The notes beneath the pieces were generated by a model. The model did not search any database. It saw nothing but the letters and a program-made list of their open reading frames with translations, and was not told where the DNA came from. Position numbers and translations under genes: made by a program. This document shows, in pieces, positions 20,090-35,709 of a DNA stretch of 64,000 nt; position 1 is the first letter of the stretch; each line of letters opens with the position of its first letter. Source of the stretch: Deltaproteobacteria bacterium (GTDB lineage: Bacteria > Desulfobacterota > Binatia > Binatales > Binataceae); contig JAKAVC010000134.1 in NCBI GenBank assembly GCA_021817345.1, positions 4,311 to 68,310 on the forward strand. The letters are read 5' to 3'.

Positions 20090-20108
20090 ACCCGTGATTT
20101 CCTTGGAA

Positions 20109-20402
20109 TCAGGAGCCGTGTCCTGCCGGTGCGCGCTTCGGCACCGGATCGTAGCCGTGACCGCCCATCGGATGGCATCGCGCAAGCCGCGCCCCAGCCA
20201 TCACGATACCCTTCAATGCGCCGTGCTCGCGGATCGCCTCTGCCGCGTAAGCCGAACAGCTCGGTTGAAAGCGGCACGCATTTCCGAACAGCGCGACTAT
20301 CAGCGGCGACAGGAACCTGCGATAGCTCCATAGCGCGCCGAGCGCGAGCGCTCGCGGCACTGCTCCGGCCAATCGTGTTCCATGACGCAAACCACCAGCC
20401 AT
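20109..20402 (-). CDS. yidD: membrane protein insertion efficiency factor YidD
   Basis: Conserved motif [31 protein letters not shown]. Confidence 0.85.
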
Positions 20403-20405
20403 CGG

Positions 20406-20780
20406 CTAGCTCCCCGATAATTTTCTCACAATATTGTGCGTTGCCGCAGCAAGCTCGGCGAGTACCTGAGGCATTGCGAGTCCGCCCGCTCCGGGCCGCG
20501 CTATCACTACCATGGAAGTTCGCGCTGGAAGCGTCGGCCGGAGCGTCAGCCGGAAGCACTCGCGCACCCGGCGCTTGAGTCGATTGCGCACCACGGCGTT
20601 TCCTATCCGGCGCGAGACGGTGACCCCGAGGCGCGAACGGTCGTCGTCATCGAGCCGACCGGCGTATACCACGAAGTGCGCGCTTTGAACGCGCACACCG
20701 ACGCGTTGCAGACGGCGGAACTCGGAGCTGCGATGGAGCCGGTCGGCGGCCGAGAAGCTCTGCGCCTTGCGGACAGGATT
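20406..20780 (-). CDS. rnpA: ribonuclease P protein component. The start codon is unresolved; the conserved core begins near LHRSSEFRR. No in-frame ATG lies downstream of rpmH.
   Basis: RnpA core (RLHRSSEFRRLQRVGVRVQSAHFVVYAG...RNRLKRRVRE) and its position between rpmH and yidD. The 193-aa ORF-track reading from 20987 is a GTG-initiated over-extension that overlaps rpmH. Confidence 0.75.
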   Translation of the reverse strand, partial: NPVRKAQSFSAADRLHRSSEFRRLQRVGVRVQSAHFVVYAGRLDDDDRSRLGVTVSRRIGNAVVRNRLKRRVRECFRLTLRPTLPARTSMVVIARPGAGGLAMPQVLAELAAATHNIVRKLSGS

Positions 20781-20782
20781 TC

Positions 20783-20941
20783 TCAGCCGGGCTGCTTGGG
20801 TGGAATCGTGACGGTGAGGCGATGGCGTCCCTTGGCGCGCCGACGCTTGAGAACGTTGCGTCCGCTCGTCGTCGCCATCCGCGCCATGAAGCCGTGGGTC
20901 CGTTTTCGTCGGCGGTTGTGAGGCTGGAAGGTCCTTTTCAT
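20783..20941 (-). CDS. rpmH: 50S ribosomal protein L34
   Basis: Hand translation of the minus strand gives [44 protein letters not shown]..., the canonical L34 sequence. Absent from the ORF track because it is shorter than 60 aa. Confidence 0.9.
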
Positions 20942-21603
20942 CGGTCTTGACCAAGGTAAACGACTGCCGGGCCCGGTACCGGGCCACGGTCGAAATCAGA
21001 AATTCTATGCGCCGCAGGCTTTTTCAAGTTTCGAACTAGCTATCGAACCACACGGCGCACGCCGGGGCAAGCGCTCGCGCCCCGACAAATCCGAACCCCG
21101 CGAAGCATCGTACGCGAGGATGCAGCGTCGAGCGCGAGCCCGAGGATCACTCTTGGCGGCAGACTCTGGGTCCCCGAGGCGAGGCCATCAGGCTCGCTCA
21201 AGGCCCGCCGCGCGTTCTCGTGCTCGCGCCTCCCATCGCCAACTCGATGTCAACGGCTGACATCAAAGCGCATTAAAGGTAGCCGTTGAACATTTGCAAC
21301 AAGATAGGAGGTCGGGGTAGGTTTCTGCACGAAACACGGCTAAAGAAGCCAAAGGAAGCTGGGATAAGGCATCCTGACCAGCGCTGCCACGCCGCTCGCC
21401 GCCGGACGCTGACAAGCCATTTTTTCAGGTTCAGATGAAGCGGGGGAAGTTGCCCTCCACTAGGGGAGTCAAGGCAACGGCCTACCACAAACAAATACGG
21501 GAACGCGGCCCCCCACCAGGCATCCGAACAGCGCTCTCGCTGCATCTGTCAAGGAATAACCTGAGGAGGCCTTCGGACCTTCTGGGAAGCACAGGGGCAA
21601 ACA

Positions 21604-22215
21604 ATGAACAAGAAAAGATTTTCGTTAGGGCCGGTTTCGCTCTTTTTGGCCGCTTCGGGACTTTGCGGCTGCTACGCCGTGCCGGGCAAGGTGAGCGGCG
21701 GCGGATGGATGCCGTCTGCCTCTGGAACGCCGGGTCAAAAGGCGGTTTTCGGCTTCAACGGAGATTCATGCGATGGGCAGACGACGGGGCACATAACCTA
21801 CGTCGATAAGAACGCCAACGTCCCAGGCCTTAGTGGCGGAATCATGATGAGGAGCACGCAGATTCTTGAGGCAAAATTGTGCAATGGATCAACCTCAGGA
21901 ACTTTTAGCGGGGCGTGCTCATTATGTAGTTCGGCGCTCGAATCGGTTGGCGTAAGCGTTGCGCCGCCCGCCACGCCGCCCCCGATGTACGCGGTATTGT
22001 TTGACTATGCTTCGATGAATCCGGCGGTTGAAACTCCGACCCCGGCACCCGAAGCGCTTGTTTGCGCGATCGACAATGGGCAGGGAGGCACCGCCACCGG
22101 TGACGATTTTGTGCTGATCGGAGCGCAGCCGCCGTTCGGCAGCAGCAGTAGTGGCTCGATCCTCAATTTCGGCTACGCGGAAGGAAACATCAAAGCCCAT
22201 AGTTGCGGGCAGTGA
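21604..22215 (+). CDS. hypothetical lipoprotein
   Basis: Lipobox LAASGLC|G. Gly/Ser/Thr-rich 203-aa protein. Locally lower GC content. Confidence 0.5.
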   Translation: MNKKRFSLGPVSLFLAASGLCGCYAVPGKVSGGGWMPSASGTPGQKAVFGFNGDSCDGQTTGHITYVDKNANVPGLSGGIMMRSTQILEAKLCNGSTSGTFSGACSLCSSALESVGVSVAPPATPPPMYAVLFDYASMNPAVETPTPAPEALVCAIDNGQGGTATGDDFVLIGAQPPFGSSSSGSILNFGYAEGNIKAHSCGQ

Positions 22216-22362
22216 ATCCCGGGCGTGGCCCCGAGGCCCGGCTGGCCTGAAACGGCGGCAATTCGTACCGAAAACACCAGTAGACGGAAACTTTCAACTC
22301 CACGAGGCTAATCGAGTTCAACCCAATCATCCTGGGCTGACCGAACGGGAGCGGCAGTCGGG

Positions 22363-22400
22363 CGGAGGTAACACGCCTCCGCCCGCGTTCTTTTCGCCGA
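22363..22400 (+). terminator. rho-independent terminator after the lipoprotein gene
   Basis: GGGCGGAGGtaacacgCCTCCGCCC followed by GCGTTCTTTT. Confidence 0.6.
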
Positions 22401-22556
22401 TTTCGCCTGAACCCGCCAGCGCGCAACGACAGACGCACGCATAACCTAGTGCGTGCCCCTGTCGCCTTCTCCGACCGCCGCAATTCCTGTCCCGTGCCGA
22501 CTTGTCGGCCACTCCCCGAAGAGGGCGTGCGATGATAACCTCATAGGTGCTCCGCC

Positions 22557-23939
22557 GTGTACGTCCAGGACACGATCGTCGCGCCCGCAACCGCGCCCGG
22601 CCAGGGCGCCGTCGCGATCGTCCGCCTTTCAGGACCACGTGCGCTCGCGATTCTCGACTCGCTATGGAAGCCGCTTCGCTCCGGCATCAAACCCGAGCCG
22701 CGGAAGATGGTCCTGGGTGAGATTATCGATCCGGCGACGGGCGCCATCCTCGATCGCGCGATAGCCGTCCGCATGCCCGCTCCTCGCACCTTCACCGGCG
22801 AGGATGTCGCGGAGCTTCATTGCCACGGCGGCATGTACCTCGTTCGGCGAATCCTCGCAGCCGCGATGGCGGCCGGGGCGCGGATGGCCGAGCCGGGCGA
22901 GTTCACCCGCCGCGCGTTTCTGAATGGGCGTATCGATCTGACCGAAGCCGAAGCGATCGCGGACCTCGTGGCCGCCCGCAGCGAAGGCGCGCTAAGGCTG
23001 GCTCTCGGCCAGATGGCCGGTGCTCTCAGCGGAAAAATAGCAAAGCTCAGGGATCAGCTCGTCTCCATCCGCGCGCATCTCGAGGCCGAGATAGATTTCG
23101 CCGACGAGGACCTGGATCTCCCGTCCCGTGGCGAAATTGCATCATCGATTGGGAGGCTCGCCGACGATGTAGCGATTTTGCATCAGAGCTTCGTGGTCGG
23201 CCGGATCACGCGCGAGGGCGCGCGCGCCGTCATCCTGGGAAAGCCCAACGTCGGCAAGTCCAGCGTGCTCAACCTGATTCTCGGAGTCGAGCGTGCGATC
23301 GTCACCGCCGTCCCCGGCACCACCCGCGACGTGATCGAGGACTCGATTCAGCTCGGTCCCTTGCAGCTCGTCCTGCAGGACACCGCCGGCGTTCGCGAAA
23401 GGGCCGATGAGGTCGAAAGTATCGGAATTTCGCGGACTTTCAGCTCGCTCGCCGAGGCCGACCTGGTCCTCGCCGTGTTCGACTCGGCCCGTCCGCTCGA
23501 CGCCGAGGACGCTATGGTTATCGAGCGATGCCGCGGGCGAAGCGGCGTCGCTCTGCTTAACAAGCGCGACCTGCCGCCCGTCACAAGCGCGGAGAATCTC
23601 CGCTCGGCTGGGCTCGCGATGCCGATAGTTCCGTTCTCGGCGCTTCGTGGCGAGGGACTTGAATCGCTACGCACGGAGATCGCACGGCTGGTCGAGGAGA
23701 TGGCCGCGCCGGGGCTTGCCTCGGGCGTCGCAATCTCCCGCGAACGCCATCGCGCCTCGCTTGACCGCGCGCTAAAGGCGCTTTCGGCGGCGCAAGAGAG
23801 CCTTCGGTCCGCGATGCCGCCCGAGATCGTCGCGGTCGACGTCGCGGCGGCCGCCGACGCACTCGGCGAAATCACCGGGGAGATCCATCGCGAGGACATC
23901 TTGGACGCGATTTTCCGCGAATTCTGCATCGGAAAATGA
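22557..23939 (+). CDS. mnmE: tRNA uridine-5-carboxymethylaminomethyl modification GTPase MnmE
   Basis: GTG start. G-domain motifs GKPNVGKSS and DTAG. C-terminal CIGK. Confidence 0.93.
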   Translation: MYVQDTIVAPATAPGQGAVAIVRLSGPRALAILDSLWKPLRSGIKPEPRKMVLGEIIDPATGAILDRAIAVRMPAPRTFTGEDVAELHCHGGMYLVRRILAAAMAAGARMAEPGEFTRRAFLNGRIDLTEAEAIADLVAARSEGALRLALGQMAGALSGKIAKLRDQLVSIRAHLEAEIDFADEDLDLPSRGEIASSIGRLADDVAILHQSFVVGRITREGARAVILGKPNVGKSSVLNLILGVERAIVTAVPGTTRDVIEDSIQLGPLQLVLQDTAGVRERADEVESIGISRTFSSLAEADLVLAVFDSARPLDAEDAMVIERCRGRSGVALLNKRDLPPVTSAENLRSAGLAMPIVPFSALRGEGLESLRTEIARLVEEMAAPGLASGVAISRERHRASLDRALKALSAAQESLRSAMPPEIVAVDVAAAADALGEITGEIHREDILDAIFREFCIGK

Positions 23940-24054
23940 ACGGAAATTACGCGAGAAATCACCGAAGTATAACAAGATAGATATATTATTCTACTTATAG
24001 TATGGTCAAGCTTGCCGGGTGCCTGCGGCCCGTAATAATCTGGGCCTTCTCCCT

Positions 24055-25917
24055 ATGACTTACGACGTTATCGTGGTCGGCGCCGGACACGCCGGGATCG
24101 AGGCGTCGCTCGCCGCCTCCCGGATGGGCGCGCGAACGCTGATGCTCACGCTCAACCTCGACCATATCGGCCAGATGTCGTGCAACCCGGCGATAGGCGG
24201 GATCGGCAAAGGGCACTTGGTTCGGGAGATCGACGCACTCGGCGGGGAGATGGGCGTCGCGATCGACGAGACCGGTATCCAGTTCCGCTTCCTCAATACC
24301 CGCAAGGGACCCGCCGTGCGCGCGCGCAGGGCCCAGGCCGACAAGGCCGCCTACCGCGCCCGGATGAAGCGCGTGCTCGAGTCCACACCCAATTTGCAAA
24401 TACGCCAGGCCAGTATCGAACGGTTGATAGTCGAAAACCGACACGTTGTCGGTGTTGAGTCGCAAATCGGCGAGACCTTCATGGCCCGTTCGGTTGTGCT
24501 CACTACCGGAACGTTCCTGAAGGGACTGATTCACGTGGGCGAGCGCAATTATCCCGCCGGACGAGCGGGCGATTTCGCCGCGATGGGGCTGAGCGAGCAT
24601 CTGCGCGAACTCGGCTTCAGAATCGGCCGGCTCAAGACCGGAACCTGTCCGCGGCTCGACGGGCGCACTATCGATTACTCGGAGCTGGAAGTTCAGCCCG
24701 GCGATGACCCGCCGCCGCCGTTCTCCTTTCGCACTGCACGTATCGAGCAGGCGCAGATTCCCTGCCATCTTACGTTTACCAACGCGGAAACCCATCGGAT
24801 AATCCGCGAGAATATCGGCCGCTCGCCGATGTACTCGGGCGTTATCCAGAGCCGCGGACCGCGCTATTGCCCGTCGGTCGAAGACAAGGTGATGCGCTTC
24901 GCGGGCAAGGAGCGGCATCAGATTTTCCTCGAACCCGAGGGACGCGATACGGTCGAGGTCTATCCCAACGGGCTTTCGACCAGCCTGCCGTTCGACGTGC
25001 AACTCGCGATGGTGCGCTCGATAAAGGGCCTTGAACGAGCGGAGGTGATGCGCCCGGGATATGCGATCGAATACGATTTCGCGGACCCCACCCAGTTGAA
25101 TTCATCCCTCGAAACCCGGCTGGTCGCGGGACTTTTCTTTGCCGGGCAGATAAACGGCACCACCGGCTACGAGGAAGCGGCTGCGCAAGGACTTATTGCC
25201 GGAATAAACGCGGCGCTTTCGGTAAGAAACGAGCCGGCGCTGATTCTTGGGCGTGATCAGGCGTATATCGGCGTGATGATCGACGACCTGGTAACGCGCG
25301 GAATCGGCGGAGAGCCGTACCGGATGTTCACCTCGCGGGCCGAATACCGGCTTGTTCTGCGCGAAGACAACGCCGATCGGCGGCTCATGCCAATAGGCGA
25401 ACGGCTGGGACTTGTCGGTGCGGCCGCAAGCGAGCGGCTTCGGCGAAAAAGCGAGCTGGTTGGCGCGGAAATCGAGCGCTTGCGGGCGGCGCTGGTTGCG
25501 AATAGCGACGAAAACAACGCAATTTTGCGGCAAAGTGGGTCATCGCCGATAAGCCAGGCGGTCCGCGCGATAGAACTGCTCAGGCGGCCGGAAATTTCAT
25601 ACGCAGTCGCGCTCAGGATGGCTGGGCTTGAGCCGATCCTCGACTTCGACCAGGCGGCGGAGCTGGAAATCGAGATCAAATACGACGGATACGTGCGCCG
25701 GCAGTTGGAGGCGGTCGAGCGCTTCAAACGGCTTGAGGATACTCCGATACCCAATTGGGTCGATTTTCACGCCGTGCAGGGCCTGTCGACTGAAGCGCGA
25801 GAGCGGCTGTCGAGGTCGCGTCCGCGATCGCTTGGGCAGGCGGCGCGGATGCCGGGAATCACGCCTGCGGCGGTTTCGCTGCTGGCGGTGCATTTGAAGG
25901 CCGGGCACGGACGCTGA
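24055..25917 (+). CDS. mnmG: tRNA uridine 5-carboxymethylaminomethyl modification enzyme MnmG (GidA)
   Basis: N-terminal FAD motif YDVIVVGAGHAGIEA. Highly conserved GidA body. The ORF track begins 36 nt upstream at 24019. Confidence 0.93.
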   Translation: MTYDVIVVGAGHAGIEASLAASRMGARTLMLTLNLDHIGQMSCNPAIGGIGKGHLVREIDALGGEMGVAIDETGIQFRFLNTRKGPAVRARRAQADKAAYRARMKRVLESTPNLQIRQASIERLIVENRHVVGVESQIGETFMARSVVLTTGTFLKGLIHVGERNYPAGRAGDFAAMGLSEHLRELGFRIGRLKTGTCPRLDGRTIDYSELEVQPGDDPPPPFSFRTARIEQAQIPCHLTFTNAETHRIIRENIGRSPMYSGVIQSRGPRYCPSVEDKVMRFAGKERHQIFLEPEGRDTVEVYPNGLSTSLPFDVQLAMVRSIKGLERAEVMRPGYAIEYDFADPTQLNSSLETRLVAGLFFAGQINGTTGYEEAAAQGLIAGINAALSVRNEPALILGRDQAYIGVMIDDLVTRGIGGEPYRMFTSRAEYRLVLREDNADRRLMPIGERLGLVGAAASERLRRKSELVGAEIERLRAALVANSDENNAILRQSGSSPISQAVRAIELLRRPEISYAVALRMAGLEPILDFDQAAELEIEIKYDGYVRRQLEAVERFKRLEDTPIPNWVDFHAVQGLSTEARERLSRSRPRSLGQAARMPGITPAAVSLLAVHLKAGHGR

Positions 25918-25924
25918 TAGGTGA

Positions 25925-26659
25925 TTGTTTCACGTGAAACGGCCGCGCGAGATCCAGACCGAGAATGCTCCGTGCATAATCGGCGCCGCGGTTCGCGAGC
26001 GCGTGATCGAGCGCTTGGTAAAATTCGGCTATAGGCCCGCCGAACCAGAGAAATTCCCCGAACGGATCGCCAAATTCGCCGAAAACCTGGCACTCTGGGG
26101 CGCAACGACCAGCCTCACTGCCCGTCCCGAAGACCCGGCCGAAATAGCCTTCCATGTAATTGACAGCCTGATGCCGGCGGTTATCGCGGCGGGACCGGAG
26201 CCCGGGCTGTTGGCGGCGGCGTTTGACGCCGGTCGCAGGGTGCTCGACGTGGGAAGTGGAGCCGGGTTTCCGGGCCTGATTCTCGCCGCAGCCACGCAGG
26301 CGGCGTTTACCCTGGCAGAGTCGCGGCGCAAGCGCGCGAGCTTTCTCTCGGTCGCAGCCGCCGAGATGGGACTGGTCAATGTCACTATCGAAACTGCCCA
26401 TATCACGCCCTCGCGATGCGTGCCCGAGTTCGACGTGGTCACTGCGCGGGCGGTTGGCGAACCGGGCGCGTTCTATGCGCTCGCGGGCGGCACGCTTCGT
26501 CCCTCGGGCCTTGCGATACTCTACGCAAGCCCCTCGCAACGGCTGAGCCTTGCCGCGGCAGGCGTGGCCGGACTGAGCGGATATACGCGGCGGCTTTACG
26601 CGGTCGAGCGCGACGGCGTGACAGTCGAAAGAGTGCTCGCGATCTGGCGCAAGAGCTGA
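25925..26659 (+). CDS. rsmG: 16S rRNA (guanine527-N7)-methyltransferase RsmG (GidB)
   Basis: SAM-binding VLDVGSGAGFPGLILA. The reported TTG start overlaps a parS site, so the true start is probably further downstream. Confidence 0.85.
   Translation: MFHVKRPREIQTENAPCIIGAAVRERVIERLVKFGYRPAEPEKFPERIAKFAENLALWGATTSLTARPEDPAEIAFHVIDSLMPAVIAAGPEPGLLAAAFDAGRRVLDVGSGAGFPGLILAAATQAAFTLAESRRKRASFLSVAAAEMGLVNVTIETAHITPSRCVPEFDVVTARAVGEPGAFYALAGGTLRPSGLAILYASPSQRLSLAAAGVAGLSGYTRRLYAVERDGVTVERVLAIWRKS
25927..25942. promoter_or_regulatory. parS centromere-like site (TGTTTCACGTGAAACG)
   Basis: Matches 15 of 16 positions of the tGTTTCACGTGAAACa ParB-binding consensus. Confidence 0.8.
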
Positions 26660-26769
26660 CCGCAGGGGCATGTCGCGAAAAGTGCAACCAGATCGCGGAA
26701 TTGGCAGACCCGCGCTGGTAAAGGTTTGATTTTGCGGACGGCTCGCGTAGATTAAGTTCACGTCGGTGC

Positions 26770-26785
26770 GGTTTCACGTGAAACC
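26770..26785. promoter_or_regulatory. parS centromere-like site (GGTTTCACGTGAAACC, perfect palindrome)
   Basis: Palindrome matching the parS core, immediately upstream of parA. Confidence 0.8.
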
Positions 26786-26810
26786 GCACGCGCCGGATCT
26801 CGATGCGGGG

Positions 26811-27608
26811 TTGGAAGTGGGGCGGGTAATAGCGATCGCGAACCAGAAGGGTGGCGTCGGCAAGACGACCACCGCGATCAATCTGGCGGTCGCTCTCTCC
26901 CAGGCGGGACGCAGCGTTCTCCTCGTCGACCTCGATCCGCAAGGCAATGCCACTTCGGGTCTTGTTTCATCTCCAGAGGCCCGCGAAGAAATCCGACAAC
27001 GCAAGAGTATCTATCAGGCACTCGTCCTCGACGTGCCACTCTCCGAGATAGTCCTTCAAGTCCGGCCCAGCCTGGTTCTTGCGGCCGCCGGTCCCGAGTT
27101 GGTCGGCGCCGAGATAGAGCTTGTCACGATGGAAGGCCGGGAACGACGGCTGCTGGCGTTGTTAGGTGCGGATGCACGGCAATATAACTATGTTTTATTA
27201 GATACGCCGCCGTCGCTCGGCCTCCTTACGCTGAACGCCCTGGTCGCTGCCGACTCAGTGTTGGTGCCGATGCAATGCGAGTACTATGCGCTCGAAGGGC
27301 TCACTTCCTTGCTTGGAACCATCGGGCGCGTGCAGTCGAGGTTTCGCCCAACCCTCGAAATCGAAGGCCTGGTGCTCACGATGTTCGACGCGCGCAACCG
27401 CCTCAGCCACGAGATTTCTCGCGAAGTCAGGGAGCATTTTCCGCACAAGGTTTTCAAGACCGTGATACCGCGCAACGTGAGACTCTCGGAGAGCCCGAGT
27501 CACGGCCTTTCCGTGCTCGAGTACGAACCCAGGTCGGCTGGCGCCGAAAGTTACCGGGCGCTGGCCCAGGAGATTTTGGCGCGCGAAGACGCCGTCGGTA
27601 TCCATTAA
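26811..27608 (+). CDS. parA: chromosome partitioning ATPase ParA/Soj
   Basis: Deviant Walker A motif IAIANQKGGVGKTTTAINLA. Likely TTG (26811) or GTG (26817) start. The ORF-track start at 26766 is an artefact of translating the parS site. Confidence 0.9.
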   Translation: MEVGRVIAIANQKGGVGKTTTAINLAVALSQAGRSVLLVDLDPQGNATSGLVSSPEAREEIRQRKSIYQALVLDVPLSEIVLQVRPSLVLAAAGPELVGAEIELVTMEGRERRLLALLGADARQYNYVLLDTPPSLGLLTLNALVAADSVLVPMQCEYYALEGLTSLLGTIGRVQSRFRPTLEIEGLVLTMFDARNRLSHEISREVREHFPHKVFKTVIPRNVRLSESPSHGLSVLEYEPRSAGAESYRALAQEILAREDAVGIH

Positions 27609-27620
27609 GGAGGACAGGAG

Positions 27621-28538
27621 ATGATTCGTAAGCCTTTGGGCCGCGGTCTGGACGCTCTTATCGGAGGCGGCGACGGCGAGAACGCTGCTCGGCCGCGCGA
27701 GGCAGGCCCGGGCGTTACGATGACGCCGGTGGCGCAGATTCTTCCCGGTCCCTATCAGCCGCGCCAGAGTTTCAACCCCGAGCGTCTCGAGGAGTTGCGC
27801 CGCGCGATCGAGAGCCAGGGAGTAATCGAGCCGTTGATTGTCCGCCGCGCGGCAAGCGCGGCCGACGGCCCGCGCTACGAATTGATCGCCGGTGAGCGCA
27901 GGTTGCGCGCGGCCCGCGCCGCCGGACTCGAAACCGTGCCGGTCATCGTGCGCGAGCTTAACGACCGCGCGGCGCTCGAGATGTCGCTGGTCGAGAACCT
28001 CGCGCGCGAGGAACTGAACGCGGTCGAGGAAGGGCGGGCATTCGCCCGCCTGAGCCGCGAGTTCGGGCTCAGCCACGATCAGATTGCGGCGCGAATCGGC
28101 AAAAGCCGCCCGCACGTGAGCAACGCTATCCGGCTTCTTGACCTGCCCGAGCCAGTGCTCGAAATGATCGCCGAGGGAAGGCTGAGCGCGGGACAGGCCC
28201 GGCCGCTGCTTGCGCTGCCGAGCGCCGAGGCGCGCCTTTCGGCGGCCCGCAGGATAGTCGAAGGCGGAATCAACGCGCGCGGCGCGGAGGAGATCGCTTC
28301 GGCCCATCGCCGGCGCAACGGCGGCGCGTCGCACGGCGCCAGTCACGCTTCCGATCCCAATCTGAACGCGCTTGTCGAGGAGCTGCAGCGCGCGCTCAAA
28401 CGCAAGGTCCGGGTGGTTCGCCGGCGCGGAAAAACTCCTGGCCGCCTGGAGCTCGATTACTACGACGACAACGATTTGACGGCGCTGGCGGCGATGCTCG
28501 CGGCCGCCGGTTCGCGCCTCGCCTCCGCGCATCAATGA
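27621..28538 (+). CDS. parB: chromosome partitioning protein ParB/Spo0J
   Basis: ParB box GERRLRAA plus helix-turn-helix region. Confidence 0.92.
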   Translation: MIRKPLGRGLDALIGGGDGENAARPREAGPGVTMTPVAQILPGPYQPRQSFNPERLEELRRAIESQGVIEPLIVRRAASAADGPRYELIAGERRLRAARAAGLETVPVIVRELNDRAALEMSLVENLAREELNAVEEGRAFARLSREFGLSHDQIAARIGKSRPHVSNAIRLLDLPEPVLEMIAEGRLSAGQARPLLALPSAEARLSAARRIVEGGINARGAEEIASAHRRRNGGASHGASHASDPNLNALVEELQRALKRKVRVVRRRGKTPGRLELDYYDDNDLTALAAMLAAAGSRLASAHQ

Positions 28539-29125
28539 AGAACGGCCCGCCGGCGGGAGCGCGCCCCCTGCGGCGATGCGCCTGGGCGCGCGGCGATCTC
28601 GCGCTTGCCTATCATGACGAGGAATGGGGCGTTCCGCTCCACGACGACCGGCGCCTGTTCGAGTTCCTGGTGCTCGAAGGAGCGCAGGCCGGGCTTAGCT
28701 GGGACACGATTCTTCGAAAGCGCGAGAATTACCGAAAGGCGTTCGCCCGGTTCGATCCCGAGACGGTTGCGCGGTTCGACGAGCGCGCGGTGAAGCGCCT
28801 GCTCGCCGATCCGGGAATCGTCCGCAACCGTCTGAAGATACTTTCGGCGATTCGAAACGCCGAAGCGTTTCTTCGCGTGCGCGACGAGTTCGGAAGCTTC
28901 GACGCCTACATCTGGCGGTTCGTCGAGGGGAGTCCGAAGCGCAACGCGTGGCGCTCGGCGAAGCAGATTCCCGCACGCACCGCGGAGTCCGACGCGATGA
29001 GCAAGGAGCTCAAGCGCCGCGGCTTCAATTTCGTCGGCTCAACCATCTGCTACGCCTTCATGCAGGCGGTCGGGATGGTGAACGATCACCTGGTGGGCTG
29101 CTTCCGCTACCGCGAGATTCGCTGA
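28535..29125 (+). CDS. tag: DNA-3-methyladenine glycosylase I
   Basis: Tag family signature (CAWA...DEEWGVP...LEGAQAGLSWDTIL). ATGA overlap with the parB stop. Confidence 0.9.
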   Translation: MKNGPPAGARPLRRCAWARGDLALAYHDEEWGVPLHDDRRLFEFLVLEGAQAGLSWDTILRKRENYRKAFARFDPETVARFDERAVKRLLADPGIVRNRLKILSAIRNAEAFLRVRDEFGSFDAYIWRFVEGSPKRNAWRSAKQIPARTAESDAMSKELKRRGFNFVGSTICYAFMQAVGMVNDHLVGCFRYREIR

Positions 29126-29213: not shown

Positions 29214-31754
29214 TCATTCCTTCGCTACCACGGTATCGTAGAGCCCATAGTGGATTAGGCCCTCGTGGCTTTCGATTCCCGTATAGCGTAGTGACGCGTC
29301 TTCGTAGCGGCGAAAGGCAAAGACAGCCTGGTTCATTTGTTCGGTGTTGAAGACCTTCAGCTGTACGAGCAAATGGAAGTCGTTCACCGTCAGGCCGGTG
29401 ACGGCTAGAAACAAGTCCGGTTCGAGCTTGGTTATGACGTCCTGCAGCGTATTCTCGCGGAAGTCGGTCAGGTACATGAACGCGGGAATCCGAGTGGCAA
29501 ACTTGATCAGCTTCTCCTGCGCGAGCTTCCGCTTGGACTTGTACTCCTTCTCCTCCTCGGTGAGCTGTTTCTTCTCCTTCTCCGTAAGATCGTGGTCCCT
29601 GGCCTTGCTCTTGAGTTCCTTCACCTTCTCGCTCTTGTTGATAATGGTCTCGATGATGTTGTCGCCGAGCGCGCGCCAGCCCTCAATTCGCTCAACGGCG
29701 GCCATCGCCTCGGGGTTGTCCATGATGCGGCGCAGAGTGTCGTTATCTACGTTCACGAGCAGGGCGCTCTCCCACTTGCGTGCCAGCAGCGTGGCTGAGG
29801 TGCCCGCCATCGCGATGTCGAGAATGCCGCCCGCGTCGATCTGCGTCATATTCGCGCCGTCGTAGGCCAGCACGGGCAGAAACGAAACGAGGTCCTTGAC
29901 CGCGTTCTCCGGGTTCTGTTCGTTTGGCGACAGGCCGATCCCATAATCGGAGATCTGCCGCAGCGCGCGCGTGGGCGCGAAGTCAAACACGAAGCAGATA
30001 GGCTTGAGGATCTCCTCCTCGTTCGGGTTGTCGCCGTTGGGGTTCTTGATCGACCACGGCGACTGCACGCGGAACGCTGCCTGAAAGTACGTCTCCGGCG
30101 ACTTGAGGTTGCGTAGCATCAGAATGGATGACCACTGTGGCACCGTCACGCCGGTGGCGAGCTTGCCGCACGAGAGCGTGATGCTCTTGGTCTCGAAACC
30201 GCTTCCGATGGCCTTGCGCACGGGTGGTAATGCCTCCAGTCCAATTCCCGCCGAGGCGCCAGCGGCGACGACCACTTCGTAGTCGTGCCAGAAAGTGTTG
30301 TGCTTCTCGGCCAGCAGGTTTGACATCGCGTGGCAGGCCGCGACGTTGGGGAGGAACCAGAACGAGTGCTGCAGGTACGGCAGCAGGCGGACATCCGAAT
30401 ACGGAAACGGCGGCCGCGTGCCCGTCTTCAGATGCTCCATCACTTGGGGCGTGTACCCACCGCGGATGATGTCTAGCCACTTCTGCACGTCGCTCTTATG
30501 TTTGAATTGCGCTTTGGCGCCCCTGCCTGATGCCTCGAAGAACTCGTTGAGATCAAACTCGTCGAACTCCCCGGCGCTCGCGATTGCCAGCAGCTCGTCC
30601 GGCATCTGGTAAGTCAGCAACCGCATCTGCGGCAGCGCACCATAAGGATTCCACTTGCCGGGCTTCTTCGCGGCGAATTCCTGCTTGGCGCGCTGTTCGT
30701 CGGTGTAGGTCCAGTTGAAGATCTGTTCTTCGATGAATTCGCCCGTGGCCAGCGCTCTGAACGGTGTGCCCGAGAGGTAGAGATATGCCTTGGTCGTGAT
30801 GGGCAGAAAATCGGTCTCCTTCTCCGAAAGAACGCTGAGGTCTTCGTTCACATCCTCCAGCCCGGCCGCGTATTCAATATTGGCCTCTTTCTTTGCAACG
30901 GCCTCTTCTTCGCCTTCAAACAGTTCTTTGGCGGTCTCTCGCCAGGCGCCGAAATGGTATTCATCAAACACCACCAGGTCCCAGTTTACCGTGTGCAACC
31001 ATTCGTTCTTGGATTTGATATTTCCCGCCGCATCACGACCAAGGAGGTCCTGAAATGAGCCGAAGTACACAACCGGTTTGTGGCCGTCGATTTTGGTGGG
31101 ATCGCTGCCCGAGTTGCGCGAGAGGTACTGCCAGCCATCGAAGTCCACGTGATTTTCGATATCCGACTGCCACGCATCCTCGACGGCAGGCTTGAACGTG
31201 ACCACAAGGACGCGTTTGGCGCCAAGCTTCTTTGCTAGCTGGTAGGTGGTGAAGGTCTTTCCGAAGCGCATCTTCGCGTTCCAGAGGAAGCGCGGGACGG
31301 CGTGCATATCCTCCTTCCAAATCGAGTGGAAGTACGCGTGCGTCTTGTTTACAGCCTCCGCTTGCTCGCGGCGCATCGCGAATGTCTCGTGATGCGTACC
31401 GGTGAACCGCTGGCCGGTGCGCAACTCGGTGAGCACGGTCTTCACGTCCTTGACCGTGCAGCGCATCCACTCTAGCTCGCCGCTCTCAAAGCCCTTCTTA
31501 ATCAGGGCCGCGCGCACTTCGTAGTCAGTGAAGATGCTGCCGTCGTTGCGCTCAGCTCGTTCGTCCAGCTCGATCCTATAATTCTTGATGGCGGCGGTTT
31601 TGAGCTGCTCGGCTACGCGCTGCTTCACGTCGCGCGTGGTCTGGCCGACCTTGAGGAGGCCCGCGTGTGCGTCGTCGGCAATGGAGTAAGCGTAGATCCG
31701 CGGCCGGGCTTCCGGCTTGGGCGCAAGGATCTCCTCGATGGTCTTACTCATCAT
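29214..31754 (-). CDS. fusion protein with an N-terminal GIY-YIG (T5orf172-like) nuclease domain and an SF2 DExH helicase/ATPase; putative restriction/effector subunit of an R-M-like defence system
   Basis: N-terminal RIYAYSIADDAHAGLLKVGQTTRDVKQRVAEQ (GIY...YIG...R...E pattern). Helicase motifs: I (KMRFGKTFT), II (LVVFDEYHFGAW), III (LYLSGTPFRA) and VI (FQAAFRVQS). About 250-aa C-terminal domain of unknown function. Lower GC and translationally coupled to the upstream MTase. Confidence 0.7.
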   Translation of the reverse strand: MMSKTIEEILAPKPEARPRIYAYSIADDAHAGLLKVGQTTRDVKQRVAEQLKTAAIKNYRIELDERAERNDGSIFTDYEVRAALIKKGFESGELEWMRCTVKDVKTVLTELRTGQRFTGTHHETFAMRREQAEAVNKTHAYFHSIWKEDMHAVPRFLWNAKMRFGKTFTTYQLAKKLGAKRVLVVTFKPAVEDAWQSDIENHVDFDGWQYLSRNSGSDPTKIDGHKPVVYFGSFQDLLGRDAAGNIKSKNEWLHTVNWDLVVFDEYHFGAWRETAKELFEGEEEAVAKKEANIEYAAGLEDVNEDLSVLSEKETDFLPITTKAYLYLSGTPFRALATGEFIEEQIFNWTYTDEQRAKQEFAAKKPGKWNPYGALPQMRLLTYQMPDELLAIASAGEFDEFDLNEFFEASGRGAKAQFKHKSDVQKWLDIIRGGYTPQVMEHLKTGTRPPFPYSDVRLLPYLQHSFWFLPNVAACHAMSNLLAEKHNTFWHDYEVVVAAGASAGIGLEALPPVRKAIGSGFETKSITLSCGKLATGVTVPQWSSILMLRNLKSPETYFQAAFRVQSPWSIKNPNGDNPNEEEILKPICFVFDFAPTRALRQISDYGIGLSPNEQNPENAVKDLVSFLPVLAYDGANMTQIDAGGILDIAMAGTSATLLARKWESALLVNVDNDTLRRIMDNPEAMAAVERIEGWRALGDNIIETIINKSEKVKELKSKARDHDLTEKEKKQLTEEEKEYKSKRKLAQEKLIKFATRIPAFMYLTDFRENTLQDVITKLEPDLFLAVTGLTVNDFHLLVQLKVFNTEQMNQAVFAFRRYEDASLRYTGIESHEGLIHYGLYDTVVAKE

Positions 31755-33363
31755 CTACTTCCATCGGCCGAATCAACTTCTCGATGTAGGCGATCTCGTC
31801 ATTCGTAAGCCCGTACTTCGCGTAAAGCTTCTTGTCCGTCCACGCCCTCGAAAAGTCTTGGAGCGGTACGAACGAGTAGGCCGAGCGTGAGAGGTCCTGC
31901 GCAGATGACCGCGCAGCAATGAGAAACCGGAAGAATCTCGTGACAACATACGAAAAACAGTTCCGCGCTTCCGTCTCAGTGTCGTAAGCGCCCAGCAGTA
32001 TGTATGTCTCGGTCACAACAGATCCGGGTGGGATGACACCGGACAGTGAGAGCACACGCCGCTGACCGTTCCTGTCAACCTGACCAGCGTGCTCTGATGA
32101 CGACTTGGACGTGAAGACCTTCCACTTATCAACTAGATCCCGGCCGACTGTTACTTCGGATCTGGACGTCCAAGCGCGCCCTCCATTTTGGAGGACAAGA
32201 ATGTCGTGCTTTGATGATCTCTTCTCAGATCCTCGAAAGAAGGTGCGCAATCCAAATGGCTTCTGCGAACTGACCTGCCTTTCGAAGCGCTTCGCCTCGG
32301 GGAGGCACAGTGACGTTGAGCCGGTCTCTACTGCCGTCACTTTCCGGAGAATTGAAAGCGCACGGCTGCTTCGAATGAATACTTCAGCACCTTCTTCTAG
32401 GAGCGGACGCACGGTTTCTGACGATTCTGACCCGTTCTCAAATTCAACTATGCGGCAATCTCCAGGATTGTCTCTGTCCCACAGGAAGTAGCAAACACCG
32501 CCTGCAACATCCACGCTTGGGAAAACCTGCCGGCTGTCCGGGTAGTCAACGAGCTTTCTAATCCGGTTGTCGGTAAGCATCGACTGGCGGAACTCGTCCA
32601 GGCCGCGGCCACCAAAGAGCCAGCGAGACGGGATAACCATCGTCAAGAAGCGCGGCTCAAGCGCCTTCGCTTGCTCCACAAATCTGTTGTAGATGGGAAT
32701 GGCACTCGCGCCGAATCCGCCATCATCCAACTGATACGGTGGGTTCCCGATGATCACATCGAACTGCATATTGTCTCCAAACAGTTCGGTTACCCGAATC
32801 TTGATGTCGTTGGTGTGGATGAACGCATACGCGTGGGTTTCGAGACCTCCGCCGCGGTCAAGGGTTTTCTTGCTGGCACCGCAATACTCGCACCTGTCAT
32901 CAATCCACGCATGCTCGACGCGGTCGAACCAGACGTTGCCACTGTCGTTGGCGAAGGACTTGGCAATGGAGTGCTTGCCGTTTGCATGCTTCGAGCAATA
33001 CACACTCCGCCGCGCAAGCAGACTCGTGAGCCGAGTGATGCCGATGCCGAACACCTGCTTTGTGAGAATGTGATCGACGCGCTCTTGCAGGTCGGGAATC
33101 TCGGCCTCCAATCCCTTGGTAAGCCGGCTGGTGATTTCGCGCAGGAACACACCCGACTTTGTGCACGGATCGAGGAACCTCACTGTCTTGTCCGCCCAGA
33201 GGCTCGCGCCACTGTGGTCGGCAGCCCACGCCTCGGCCAGCGTGTCCAGCATTCGGTTCGCGAGCTCAGGCGGCGTAAACACCTCGTCGTTCGAGAGGTT
33301 CGCAATGCATGTTAGTACATCCGGGTTGCGGCCACGCAGCGCAAACGCCGCCCGAGCGCTCAT
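31744..33363 (-). CDS. gamma-class N6-adenine DNA methyltransferase (Eco57I/TaqI-like) with C-terminal target-recognition region
   Basis: Motif X (EVFTPPELANRML), motif I (FLDPCTKSGVFL) and motif IV (DVIIGNPPYQ), in that order. C-terminal KLYAKYGLTxxEIxYIE tail typical of this MTase family. Confidence 0.85.
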   Translation of the reverse strand: MSARAAFALRGRNPDVLTCIANLSNDEVFTPPELANRMLDTLAEAWAADHSGASLWADKTVRFLDPCTKSGVFLREITSRLTKGLEAEIPDLQERVDHILTKQVFGIGITRLTSLLARRSVYCSKHANGKHSIAKSFANDSGNVWFDRVEHAWIDDRCEYCGASKKTLDRGGGLETHAYAFIHTNDIKIRVTELFGDNMQFDVIIGNPPYQLDDGGFGASAIPIYNRFVEQAKALEPRFLTMVIPSRWLFGGRGLDEFRQSMLTDNRIRKLVDYPDSRQVFPSVDVAGGVCYFLWDRDNPGDCRIVEFENGSESSETVRPLLEEGAEVFIRSSRALSILRKVTAVETGSTSLCLPEAKRFERQVSSQKPFGLRTFFRGSEKRSSKHDILVLQNGGRAWTSRSEVTVGRDLVDKWKVFTSKSSSEHAGQVDRNGQRRVLSLSGVIPPGSVVTETYILLGAYDTETEARNCFSYVVTRFFRFLIAARSSAQDLSRSAYSFVPLQDFSRAWTDKKLYAKYGLTNDEIAYIEKLIRPMEVDDE

Positions 33364-34016
33364 ACGGCCTCCTTCGAGGACTCGCCAGGCGTGGCAGCGG
33401 CCAGCTCGCTCACGGTCACCGGCGGGTAGGTCTTCGTCGGCTTGAAGATCTCGTGCTTCCCGAGGTGGGCGAATAGCGAGTCCTCCGCACTGAAGGCCGA
33501 CGAAAGGGTGAGGGTGTCGAGGCGAAAATCGCGCCGCTGGAATTTGCCCTTACCAAGATAGCCCCACTCGGCAAAGGTGATCGGCTTGCCGTCGCTGGTG
33601 CGCATCGTCAAGGCGTCACCGTGAACGAGGTTCTGCGTGAGCACGTAAAAAGCGGCCCGATAGAGGTCGTCTGATTCCTTGAGGTTCAGGTAGTCAGCGA
33701 GAATCTCCAGCATATTCGCCCGGCATTCGGCGATGTTGTCCTCTAGGAGCTCGATCCCGTAGGTGCACATCAAAGCGAGAAGCGCGTAGTGCCGCCTTTC
33801 AAAGTCGGACCTCCCGAACTTGAGTTCGACGGCGGCAAGCTTGCGCTGCAGGATGCGGACGAGGAAGTTTCCACTCCCACAGGCCGGCTCCAGGAAGCGG
33901 GAGTCGATGCGCTCGGTTTCGTCCTTGACGAGGTCGAGCATCGCTTCGACCATCCAACGGGGAGTGAACACCTCCCCATGGTCGGCGACGCGTTTCTTCG
34001 ACTTGATCTGGTTCAT
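33360..34016 (-). CDS. N6-adenine MTase N-terminal-like module (motifs X, I, II, III but no NPPY). Either an accessory subunit or a truncated paralogue.
   Basis: Motifs GEVFTPRWMVEAML, FLEPACGSGNFLV, YGIEL and LVHGDAL, paralogous to the N-terminus of the adjacent 539-aa MTase. The stop overlaps the next start (GTATGA), which is preceded by GGAGG. Confidence 0.6.
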   Translation of the reverse strand: MNQIKSKKRVADHGEVFTPRWMVEAMLDLVKDETERIDSRFLEPACGSGNFLVRILQRKLAAVELKFGRSDFERRHYALLALMCTYGIELLEDNIAECRANMLEILADYLNLKESDDLYRAAFYVLTQNLVHGDALTMRTSDGKPITFAEWGYLGKGKFQRRDFRLDTLTLSSAFSAEDSLFAHLGKHEIFKPTKTYPPVTVSELAAATPGESSKEAV

Positions 34017-34359
34017 AAGTCAAATGCCCGGCTCGCGTCGGGACTGCCGATTGTCTGACGTACAGAAATAATTATCCTGCGCGCTTTGGCCCCCACAACC
34101 CTACCTCGACATCGACACCGCATGTCAGCTAGGCTTCGTTCGAGCTAGACGAACGTAGCGTACCTCGCTCGATCAATCGGACAAACTTCTTATAGTTGTG
34201 ATGATCCCGCTGCCACCTTCCGGCCACCGGGGTGTCGCCCACCGCGTTCCCCATTGGTCAGCCGCTGTCGCGCGCGCAGGACGAATTCCTGGCTCGCGAT
34301 GCTCTATTGGTTTCGCGATTGAGAGCGGCGGGCGAGGGACGTTCCAGGCGCGCATAGAT

Positions 34360-34402
34360 CGCAACCGCCTCAAGATACTTTCGGCAATTCGAAACGCCGA
34401 AA
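34360..34402 (+). repeat. diverged 43-bp direct repeat of a tag coding segment (partner at 28823-28865); right boundary of the R-M island
   Basis: 39 of 43 bp identical to the tag codons for RNRLKILSAIRNAE. The three substitutions inside those codons are synonymous. Confidence 0.7.
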
Positions 34403-34482
34403 CCTCAAGCCGGTCTCGCAGTAATTGTTAGGCTGCGATAGCTGTTGGTAAAGCCGTATGCACGGGAGGAAGAATTGGTGGC

Positions 34483-35709
34483 ATGAGCGACAATCTGCCT
34501 TTGGACGGGATGCGCGTGGTCGAGCTTGGAGAAGGGATCAGCGCCGCGTTCTGTACGCGGATGCTGGCGGGCCTCGGTGCTGAGGTATGGAAAATCGAGC
34601 AGCCGGGACGGGGCGACCGTGCCAGGCGCACACCCGACCTCGACGGCACTGAATGTGACAGTGAAGCCAATCCGCTGTTTCTGTATCTGAACACCGGCAA
34701 GAAGAGCGTCACGCTCGACCTGCACGATCAGCGCGGGCGCGATCTGCTTATGGCGCTGGTGGCGAAGGCCGACTGCGTGGTCGAAAATATGCTGCCGCGC
34801 GAATGGGCCGCGCTCGGCATGGAACCGGGGCGGCTGCGAGCCCAAAAGCCCGCTCTGGTCGTCACCTCGATAACTCCATTCGGCCAGACCGGCCCGTATC
34901 GCGATTTCGAGGCGACCAATCTGATTGAGTTTGCGATGGGCGGCCAGATGGCGTTGACGGGTGAGCCCTCGCGCGAGCCGCTGGTAAATGGCGGGTCCCA
35001 GGCCGAGTATCAGGGTGGGCTTCACGCGCTGCCCGGGACACTTGCCGCGCTGGCGCGGGCGAGCGCGACCGGCCAGGGCGAGCATCTGGATATTTCCATC
35101 GTCGAGTGCCAGGCAAGCACGCTGGAAACAGCCAATCCCGCCACGGTTGCTCTGGATTCGCCCACCTCGAATCAATGGAAAACGCGGCGCGGCAATATCA
35201 TTTCGGCCACCTGGGCGCTTTACCAGGCCGCCGACGGATACGCGGGGCTGTACTACCTGCCGCGTCAGTATCCCAAGGTGTTCGACCTGATCGGACAGCC
35301 GGAACTGCTTCAAGACGACCGATTCAAGGATCCGCAAACGGCGCTCCAGACCAATGATGAGCTGGTCGCGATAATCAGTGGATATTTCCTCGAGCATGGC
35401 AAATTCGAATTGTTCGAACGCGCGGCCAGCCAGAGGGGATGCGTGGGCTTTGTCGCCTCGATACCCGAGGCGCTGAGTTCGCCGCAGGAAGCCGCGCGCA
35501 ATTTCTTCGCCCGTGTCACCCATCCGCGCGCCGGGACCTACACTGAACCTACGGCTCCGTGGATTCTCAATGACGGGGAGCGCGACCTTCAGTTTCGCAT
35601 CGCCGGTCCGGCGCCGCTGCTCGGTGAGCATACCGCCGAGGTGCTGGCCGCGGAACTCGGCCTCCTGGACGCAAAACTCCAAGAACTCTCGCAGGCAGGG
35701 ATTATCTGA
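34483..35709 (+). CDS. family III CoA-transferase (CaiB/BaiF family)
   Basis: N-terminal LxGxRVxELG pattern and conserved catalytic Asp region (FVENM). Confidence 0.85.
   Translation: MSDNLPLDGMRVVELGEGISAAFCTRMLAGLGAEVWKIEQPGRGDRARRTPDLDGTECDSEANPLFLYLNTGKKSVTLDLHDQRGRDLLMALVAKADCVVENMLPREWAALGMEPGRLRAQKPALVVTSITPFGQTGPYRDFEATNLIEFAMGGQMALTGEPSREPLVNGGSQAEYQGGLHALPGTLAALARASATGQGEHLDISIVECQASTLETANPATVALDSPTSNQWKTRRGNIISATWALYQAADGYAGLYYLPRQYPKVFDLIGQPELLQDDRFKDPQTALQTNDELVAIISGYFLEHGKFELFERAASQRGCVGFVASIPEALSSPQEAARNFFARVTHPRAGTYTEPTAPWILNDGERDLQFRIAGPAPLLGEHTAEVLAAELGLLDAKLQELSQAGII

Follow-up and report, generated by a model that had tools for sequence, protein, structure and literature searches.

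The window analyzed here, 64,000 nucleotides (nt) of contig JAKAVC010000134.1 from a Deltaproteobacteria bacterium, carries on its minus strand three overlapping genes, which we call A218 (an open reading frame (ORF) of 218 amino acids (aa)), B539 (a methyltransferase (MTase)/specificity gene of 539 aa) and C846 (a helicase-nuclease gene of 846 aa). From sequence comparison and structure prediction, we propose that A218 is a functional, separate subunit that binds S-adenosylmethionine (AdoMet) and probably completes the catalytic half of B539 in trans, as part of a mobile three-gene cassette resembling restriction-modification (R-M) systems. We assign this explanation a probability of about 0.6. 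A218 is a near-invariable partner of B539 and C846.

Gene order, motifs and predicted fold of A218

A218 (33360..34016) encodes, according to its translation, the stand-alone AdoMet-binding N-terminal half (N-half) of a gamma-class N6-adenine DNA MTase; all features of the three genes lie on the minus strand. After motifs X, I, II and III it continues with a beta-hairpin and ends in a C-terminal tail; motif IV is absent. B539 follows (31744..33363), and C846 (29214..31754) overlaps the end of B539 by 11 nt. Within B539 we distinguish a divergent N-half, called B-N (aa 1–197; 32773..33363), based on a conservation map and on hhalign against the A family, from a C-half (aa 198–539; 31744..32772), assigned by Pfam Eco57I and PADLOC, that contains the catalytic strand, the NPPY motif (aa 207–210; nt 32734–32745), the MTase core and a variable target-recognition domain (TRD). 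C846 combines an N-terminal T5orf172 (GIY-YIG-like) nuclease domain with a ResIII/superfamily 2 (SF2) helicase, as assigned by Pfam.

The first-pass annotation had described the 218-aa ORF as carrying the motifs of an AdoMet-binding half, ending before the catalytic NPPY and joined to the MTase gene by a ribosome-binding site and a GTATGA stop-start junction. Both points were confirmed: the translation has the four motifs and no [DNS]PP[YFW] motif anywhere in its 218 aa, and the reverse complement of 33360–33365 reads GTATGA, with the TGA stop codon of A218 overlapping the ATG of B539. The translational coupling site (33360..33375) comprises this ATGA overlap (33360–33363) and the Shine-Dalgarno sequence GAAGGAGG (33368–33375), located 4 nt 5′ of the B539 ATG. 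The identical 4-nt ATGA overlap between A and B occurs in ~50 of 80 homologous genome loci, which were kept from at least 551 confirmed loci in a scan of one genome per species. The coupling is therefore a conserved feature.

The motifs of A218 were assessed among 57 orthologues and in a deep alignment of the A family with 46 sequences down to 39% identity. Motif X, GEVFTP (aa 14–19; 33960..33977), is at least 98% conserved in the former and at least 90% in the latter. Motif I, FLEPACGSGNFL (aa 41–52; 33861..33896), corresponds to the AdoMet glycine loop and is conserved in the deep alignment, where A45, C46 and G47 are invariant and E43, P44, G49, N50 and F51 are at least 90% conserved. Motif II, YGIEL (aa 86–90; 33747..33761), provides the acidic residue that closes strand beta-2. 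In the deep alignment its G87 never varies and its Y86 is kept at 90% or more; E89 is conserved among orthologues and the acid is D in distant members (the fused relative P0240 and L092 read YGID). Motif III, LVHGDAL (aa 130–136; 33609..33629), is conserved across the family, with D or N at the position of D134 in distant members. It is followed by a conserved beta-hairpin, ITFAEWGYLGKGKFQRRDFRL (aa 146–165; 33522..33581), in which F148, E150, W151 and R161 are each kept in at least 90% of the family. In P0240 this hairpin reads 'MIFSEWAYVAGKITENTRYISDIKFDVIVGNPPY' and directly precedes the NPPY strand.

Pfam assigned MmeI_Mtase and N6_Mtase (PF02384) to A218 above the cut-offs, covering aa 11–114 only, which in the case of N6_Mtase corresponds to motifs X to II. 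No TRD is present in A218; the TRD resides in B539 at aa ~291–539. Neither Pfam nor NCBIfam yielded a helix-turn-helix (HTH) or other regulatory domain in A218. An AlphaFold2 model computed from the 46-sequence alignment reached a pLDDT of 88.9 and a pTM of 0.84; an earlier run with 20 sequences of 83–93% identity was discarded (pLDDT 44). In the model, strands 41–44, 85–89 and 130–134 take the positions of motifs I, II and III with helices between them, followed by the hairpin at 147–165 (strands 147–155 and 158–165), a helix at 166–176, a disordered segment and, placed with confidence, the tail at 190–209. The top Foldseek matches in the PDB were MTase domains of CamA, BsaXI, LlaGI, LlaBIII, DrdV and BrxX. 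These matches to gamma-class adenine MTase domains are partial, with 100–150 columns and a TMq of ~0.35–0.41. The predicted fold is what one would expect of half an MTase domain to which the family has added parts of its own. A PDB sequence search with the A218 profile returned matches to motifs X and I only. Because motif IV is absent, the Pfam matches stop at ~aa 114 and the Foldseek matches cover 100–150 columns, A218 alone is not a complete MTase.

The tail of A218 (aa 153–218; 33360–33560), reading 'FQRRDFRLDTLT...HLGKHEIFKPTKTYPP..SELA', weakly resembles aa 1–58 of B539 (33190–33363). The start of B539 compared with it reads 'FALRGRNPDVLTC IANLSNDEVFTPPE..DTLA'. Taken at face value, the likeness would give a second motif-X-like element. 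This likeness comes from a global hhalign comparison of low probability, may be due to chance and was not used as evidence.

Conservation across phyla

A218 has more than 8000 relatives in the databases. The best 120 of these are 213–276 aa long and 81–100% identical to it, and family members down to 44% identity are still ~200–280 aa long in a library clustered at 50% identity. The 80 loci come from Alpha-, Beta-, Gamma- and Deltaproteobacteria, Nitrospirota, Planctomycetota, Cyanobacteria, Chloroflexota, Acidobacteriota, Gemmatimonadota, Spirochaetota, Bacillota, Actinomycetota, Bacteroidota, KSB1 and Saccharibacteria, and the order A-B-C is kept in genome loci of at least 14 phyla. The mean pairwise identity amounts to 80% for A, 77% for aa 1–196 of B, 65% for the B core, 42% for the B TRD and 86% for the C helicase; C846 is 82–90% identical between phyla. 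With an NG86 dN/dS ratio of 0.10–0.16, A218 is under strong purifying selection. Synonymous sites are near saturation and the GC content of the gene varies from 51 to 67%.

The association was also sampled from the side of B539, using its first 200 aa as the query against metagenomes and counting loci with at least 700 bp upstream as informative. A was found upstream of B-N in 59 of these 61 loci. In one of the two exceptions (L175) a large cargo insert pushes A past the fetched flank, and the other (L145) is rearranged. Among plasmids, the same 9 records carry a match to C846 (at least 71% identity) and to A218 (at least 59%), and the record counts for C846 and A218 agree in Enterococcus (32/32) and Lactococcus (9/9). 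A blastn search of complete Escherichia coli genomes gave no homologue.

These data bear on the suggestion, made from the window sequence, that A218 might be a decayed remnant, that is, a frameshift pseudogene, one part of a split long MTase gene or a sequencing error. Its lack of motif IV, its position directly upstream of a full MTase and the existence of frameshifted B genes in some lineages (L092, L094, L097) would suit such an origin. However, the two-ORF layout with a product of ~218 aa recurs in hundreds of genomes and metagenomes, the stop position and the ATGA junction are the same in ~50 of the 80 loci, and the low dN/dS ratio is accompanied by ~80% identity over at least 14 phyla. 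A single continuous MTase gene in homologous islands would have pointed to a remnant, but no orthologous locus with a continuous A+B frame (A, B-N and C-half) was found among the loci examined, and the only apparent long products are noisy sequences with frameshifts. The two candidates for true A+B fusions, P0227 (530 aa) and P0121 (309 aa), were rejected as visibly frameshifted read-throughs. A-like genes also exist apart from the MTase gene, in Lactobacillus. Taken together, this refutes the remnant explanation, to which we give a practically negligible probability.

A different possibility is that A218 has no functional tie to B539 and C846 and is merely co-transferred with them, its role being, for example, that of a small AdoMet-dependent enzyme or AdoMet-binding protein with another substrate. 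The autonomous folding of A218 in silico would agree with this, as would its tail region, which evolves independently of the rest of A (r = -0.01) and of all neighboring modules. Against it stand the absence of a catalytic motif from A218, the near-obligatory adjacency and translational coupling, the retention of A in loci with inserted cargo genes, where the coupling runs through the insertion, and the fused and split relatives described below, which tie the A-type module to the NPPY half. We consider independence very unlikely.

Two N-halves and one catalytic half

A218 and B539 share 33% identity over 60 aa in BLASTP (E 5e-4). When the A family was compared with B-N by hhalign, the probability was 95.5% (E 1.5e-8), and the aligned region extended from motif X to strand beta-2 only. 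The initial claim that A218 repeats the AdoMet-binding half of the downstream MTase thus holds at the level of motifs but not beyond it. Judged from these alignments, A218 and B-N are old, divergent paralogues, and a paralogy this distant argues against A218 being a recent duplicate of B-N. A recent tandem duplication of the N-half of B539, kept by chance or for the shuffling of specificity, could account for motifs X and I occurring in the same order in both and for the weak, low-probability likeness between the A218 tail and the first 58 aa of B539. It is, however, hard to reconcile with 33% identity over just 60 aa, and the A and B-N types are already distinct in both the window system and distant Lactococcus plasmids. 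Domain shuffling of specificity, which the first-pass annotation had also raised, does not match the distribution of variation, since specificity variation maps to the C-half and not to A or B-N. We regard a recent duplication as highly improbable.

The two N-halves differ in their AdoMet motifs. Motif X is kept in B-N (DEVFTPP, compared with GEVFTP in A218), but motif I reads FLDPCTKSGVFL, with the first glycine replaced by lysine, the position of motif II reads FGIGIT and lacks the acid, and instead of motif III there is nothing alignable but a CxxC-containing insert. The same pattern, even more degenerate, is seen in the N-half of a 1452-aa fusion protein of Lactococcus ('VLTPW', 'ILEINSKTGLY', 'NIYVIAKT'). 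We infer from these sequences that A218 is a canonical AdoMet binder and that B-N is not.

Relatives of the cassette show how A-type modules are combined with catalytic halves. P0240, a fused form of 500 aa found on 3 contigs, has an A-type N-half (55% identical to A218) that leads straight into 'FDVIVGNPPY...'. A two-gene split is seen in L090/L091 (22 contigs) and L096 (57% identical), where the A-like gene codes for 218–221 aa and shares 11 nt with a C-half gene that begins 'MKFDAIVGNPPY' or 'MKFDAIVGNPPYQL' ('MKFDxIVGNPPY') and lacks motifs X–III. These lineages lack the space for a second N-half, which leaves the A-like protein as their sole possible AdoMet-binding half. The split C-half genes belong to a family of 628 Eco57I-only proteins, mostly of ~320–360 aa among those listed, and correspond to the 348-aa PADLOC MTase model. 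On Lactococcus and Enterococcus plasmids, an A-like gene precedes the 1452-aa protein, which consists of a C846-like helicase, the degenerate N-half and, from residue 1116 on, a C-half that begins 'MKFDVVIGNPPYQ'. On a Lactobacillus plasmid, the giant gene comes first and the A-like gene follows three genes downstream. B-N-type halves are present where the helicase-nuclease is present and are absent from the orphan fused and split forms, of which few lineages were seen. Two features of a split MTase were therefore found, homologues fused to the catalytic half (P0240) and homologues next to a gene for the C-half only (L090/L091, L096); a partner without its own N-half, the third such feature, was not found in the window, as B539 carries one.

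Some loci seemed at first to contain B-N as a naturally separate gene (L092, L094 and L097, with the order A, a gene of 177–198 aa, and C-half). They were rejected as frameshifted B539-type genes because the missing segment with a Zn-ribbon and 'HAYxFIH' reads through in another frame. In L092/L093 (6471–7984; P0386), the frameshift leaves B in two pieces, a B-N fragment of 177 aa and a C-half of 327 aa that starts from the conserved Met. P0386 occurs in 56 index blocks, including contigs of more than 1 Mb, and many samples yielded the same sequence; it may be a pseudogene that has become fixed, or the split could be tolerated because A supplies the N-half. The orphan split MTase of L090/L091 (3469–6060) and L096 (2663–5104) adjoins an AAA_5 (McrB-like) ATPase and a divergent 438-aa protein, with an integrase-like gene nearby in L096, and this locus may represent an McrBC-like module on an integrative element.

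In our proposal, A218, B539 and C846 are translated as a coupled operon. If A218 acts in trans, it would bind AdoMet and dock onto B539 to form the active methylation site. It would supply strands beta-1 to beta-3 with motifs X–III to the NPPY half, as the A-like protein must do in the L090-type split enzymes. Binding and docking are suggested by the state of B-N, which has no motif II acid, no detectable motif III and a lysine in the glycine loop. The exchangeable C-half with its TRD would direct the complex of A and B to an asymmetric site, of which one strand would be methylated, and C846 would use ATP to translocate and to restrict DNA that is unmethylated, much as Type ISP or Type I enzymes do. 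In our reading, the coupled order A, B, C would favor assembly of the methylase before the nuclease accumulates.

Several observations weigh against catalysis in trans and would be explained more simply if A218 were a non-catalytic AdoMet-binding partner, acting as sensor, regulator or scaffold on B-N or C846, and B539 were a complete MTase in cis. B539 is collinear with the complete, fused MTase P0240, has a full-length Pfam match to Eco57I (aa 102–281), and its motif X and the 'DP...SG' segment of motif I are 98–100% conserved. With this collinearity and the motif X and motif I core retained, a non-canonical mode of folding and AdoMet binding in cis is possible for B539, and A218 would then be an extra subunit. 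A218 also folds confidently alone in AlphaFold2, including its tail at 190–209. In Mantel tests, the distances of A (aa 1–140) track those of B-N and C (r = 0.37–0.44) and not those of the catalytic core. For A and the B catalytic core r was 0.04, without a signal of co-evolution at an interface between A and the C-half; for B-N and the core it was 0.17, and linkage confounds the A and B-N values alike. These tests do not discriminate between catalysis in cis and in trans.

In such an accessory role, A218 might tune methylation against restriction or report the availability of AdoMet. This is difficult to align with the L090/L096 lineages and P0240, in which the A-type module is the sole AdoMet-binding half, so the ancestral job of the module was catalytic. 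It also leaves the missing motif II acid, the lack of an alignable motif III and the lysine in the glycine loop of B-N unexplained, likewise the corresponding losses in the Lactococcus fusion, and A218 has no HTH or regulatory domain. We view a purely accessory function as the main rival, though a less likely one. Regarding the earlier proposal of a functional accessory subunit, the subunit itself was corroborated as a canonical AdoMet-binding N-half of a naturally split MTase family, and the sensor or regulatory role persists as this rival.

One could also imagine that a single catalytic half is served by two alternative N-halves, the AdoMet-blind B-N in cis and the AdoMet-loaded A218 in trans, and that their exchange acts as a switch between methylation and restriction. 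Docking of A218 with AdoMet would lead to methylation, and with B-N in place, or with AdoMet depleted, for instance by phage AdoMet-degrading enzymes, the site would be passed to C846. Such a switch, in which the state of the cofactor and the assembly of the subunits decide whether a site is methylated or restricted, would be previously undescribed, but we deem it unlikely.

Cassette exchange, known systems and genomic setting

The distance matrices of A, B-N, the C-nuclease and the C-helicase intercorrelate (r = 0.32–0.60, p = 0.005; Mantel), whereas the B core, TRD and tail reach r values of at most 0.17 against the A, B-N and C modules (B539 aa 198–539, 45 loci). Because its distances track none of the constant modules, the C-half is a recombining cassette between constant parts. 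As the core and the TRD evolve independently of A, B-N and C, the swapped unit includes the NPPY catalytic core, unlike in the swapping of Type I hsdS.

About a quarter of the loci carry cargo genes precisely at the A/B junction, and sometimes at B/C, with start/stop coupling retained. Cargo at the A/B junction was found in L019, L024, L028, L040, L064, L075 and L045, and further cargo loci are L020, L021, L022, L034, L049, L060, L061, L073, L076, L077 and L004. A recurrent insert of 1636 bp carries the genes of an ImmA/IrrE-like peptidase of 383 aa and a DUF4411/PIN-like protein of 164 aa; other cargo comprises RhuM/KilA-N-like, GxxExxY, DUF1016/YhcG, Fic and MazF proteins, the latter with an antitoxin, and an IS200-like transposase (all names were read from translations). 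Judging by these gene contents, the operon junctions behave as hotspots for defence or toxin-antitoxin-type cargo. Duplicated 5′ fragments of B (first 30–150 codons) or C (first ~30–40 codons) often precede the cargo, for instance in L004 (10105–10191), L061 (10086, 12068 and 12820), L073 (8457–8711) and L175 (2–154), as well as in L018, L038, L017, L020 and L046. These short duplicates point to the conserved 5′ ends of B and C as the places where recombination exchanges cassettes.

MTases with one catalytic domain formed from two polypeptides, encoded by adjacent or overlapping genes, are known among C5-cytosine enzymes, namely M.AquI alpha/beta and M.EcoHK31I alpha/beta. These have one copy of each half, in contrast to the cassette, which belongs to the gamma-class N6-adenine type and has a catalytic chain with an extra, degenerate N-half. 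Type I R-M systems (hsdM-hsdS-hsdR) likewise have constant modules around a hypervariable, recombining specificity module and the same kinds of cargo inserted between the system genes, but the cassette has no separate HsdS, its nuclease-helicase is not HsdR-like and its swapped unit holds the NPPY core. Pairs of the METTL3-METTL14 type, in which an intact AdoMet site is combined with a paralogous degenerate one, offer an analogy only, as they consist of two complete Rossmann domains, not of two half-domains that compete for or flank one catalytic half.

Type ISP enzymes unite an Mrr-family nuclease and one complete MTase domain in a single chain (PMC4666363). Their layout comprises Mrr nuclease, SF2 ATPase, coupler, MTase and TRD. 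The cassette shares with them a nuclease, an SF2 helicase-like ATPase, a gamma-class N6-adenine MTase and a single TRD, from which methylation of one strand of an asymmetric site would be expected. Further likenesses are the fold matches of the A218 model to the MTase domains of LlaGI and LlaBIII and the Lactococcus/Enterococcus relatives of the cassette, which fuse helicase and MTase half into the 1452-aa chain. The cassette differs in consisting of three polypeptides, in its T5orf172/GIY-YIG-like instead of Mrr nuclease, and in having two N-halves per NPPY half. The DnmA(YeeA)-YeeB-YeeC operon of Bacillus subtilis, with homologues in Vibrio crassostreae, was horizontally acquired and combines an MmeI/Eco57I-type adenine MTase, an SF2 helicase and T5orf172; the B. 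subtilis locus showed no anti-phage activity (PMC9973331). The MTase type, helicase and T5orf172 in one operon are shared with the cassette, but the MTase is one complete protein there, helicase and T5orf172 are separate proteins, and no small N-half subunit is described for it.

Our literature searches found no description of a small subunit like A218 or of the two-N-half arrangement, and nothing specific on the system or on experiments with family members. In PADLOC-DB v2, there was no system-specific match but only the generic models MTase_I, MTase_II, REase_MTase_IIG and oMTase. The REase_MTase_IIG model (PDLC03626) covers aa 155–775 of C846, spanning C846 plus the C-half of B539, and PDLC03375, the 348-aa model, covers B539 aa 197–532 only. 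Weak, partial PADLOC matches (E 5.6e-08 to 0.025) concerned the MADS MTase mad2, BREX PglX and the candidate PDC-S57. NCBIfam has no model for C846. In the PDB, B539 matched one HsdM weakly in its C-half plus CCT-delta by chance, and searches with P0240, the Lactococcus giant protein and C846 found nothing; no PDB chain is related in sequence to any of these or to A218 beyond partial or weak matches.

If trans-complementation is correct, a naturally split adenine MTase would reside in a very widely shared, highly conserved R-M-like cassette (~80–86% protein identity, more than 12 phyla). Short 'N-6 DNA methylase' and 340-aa 'site-specific methyltransferase' ORFs would then be enzyme halves and not fragments, which would explain annotation errors. 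The cassette would also represent a compact, modular scaffold in which specificity and catalytic unit are swapped together between constant parts, and it raises the mechanistic question of why one active site has two N-halves.

In the window, the cassette lies between the tag and CoA-transferase genes, directly downstream of the conserved origin-proximal cluster yidC-jag-mnmE-mnmG-rsmG-parA-parB (17451–29125 including tag; names read from translations). A 53-nt direct repeat on the plus strand has its left copy (28812..28864) inside the tag gene (28535..29125) and its right copy (34349..34401) in an isolated tag fragment, 'RNRLKILSAIRNAE', after which no further tag sequence follows. The copies are 85% identical (blastn, 42-nt core at 93%) at a spacing of 5537 nt, and they enclose the 3′ third of the tag gene together with the three-gene island. 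The enclosed stretch has no integrase and no att mechanism could be recognized from the copies; the pair resembles a scar left by insertion or recombination. The cassette has a GC content of ~55–60%, compared with 61–70% in the flanks. The flanking repeat and the lower GC content are consistent with horizontal acquisition of the cassette. The GC-rich window also contains many long antisense ORFs, such as 34405..35682 on the minus strand opposite the CoA-transferase gene, that are likely spurious.

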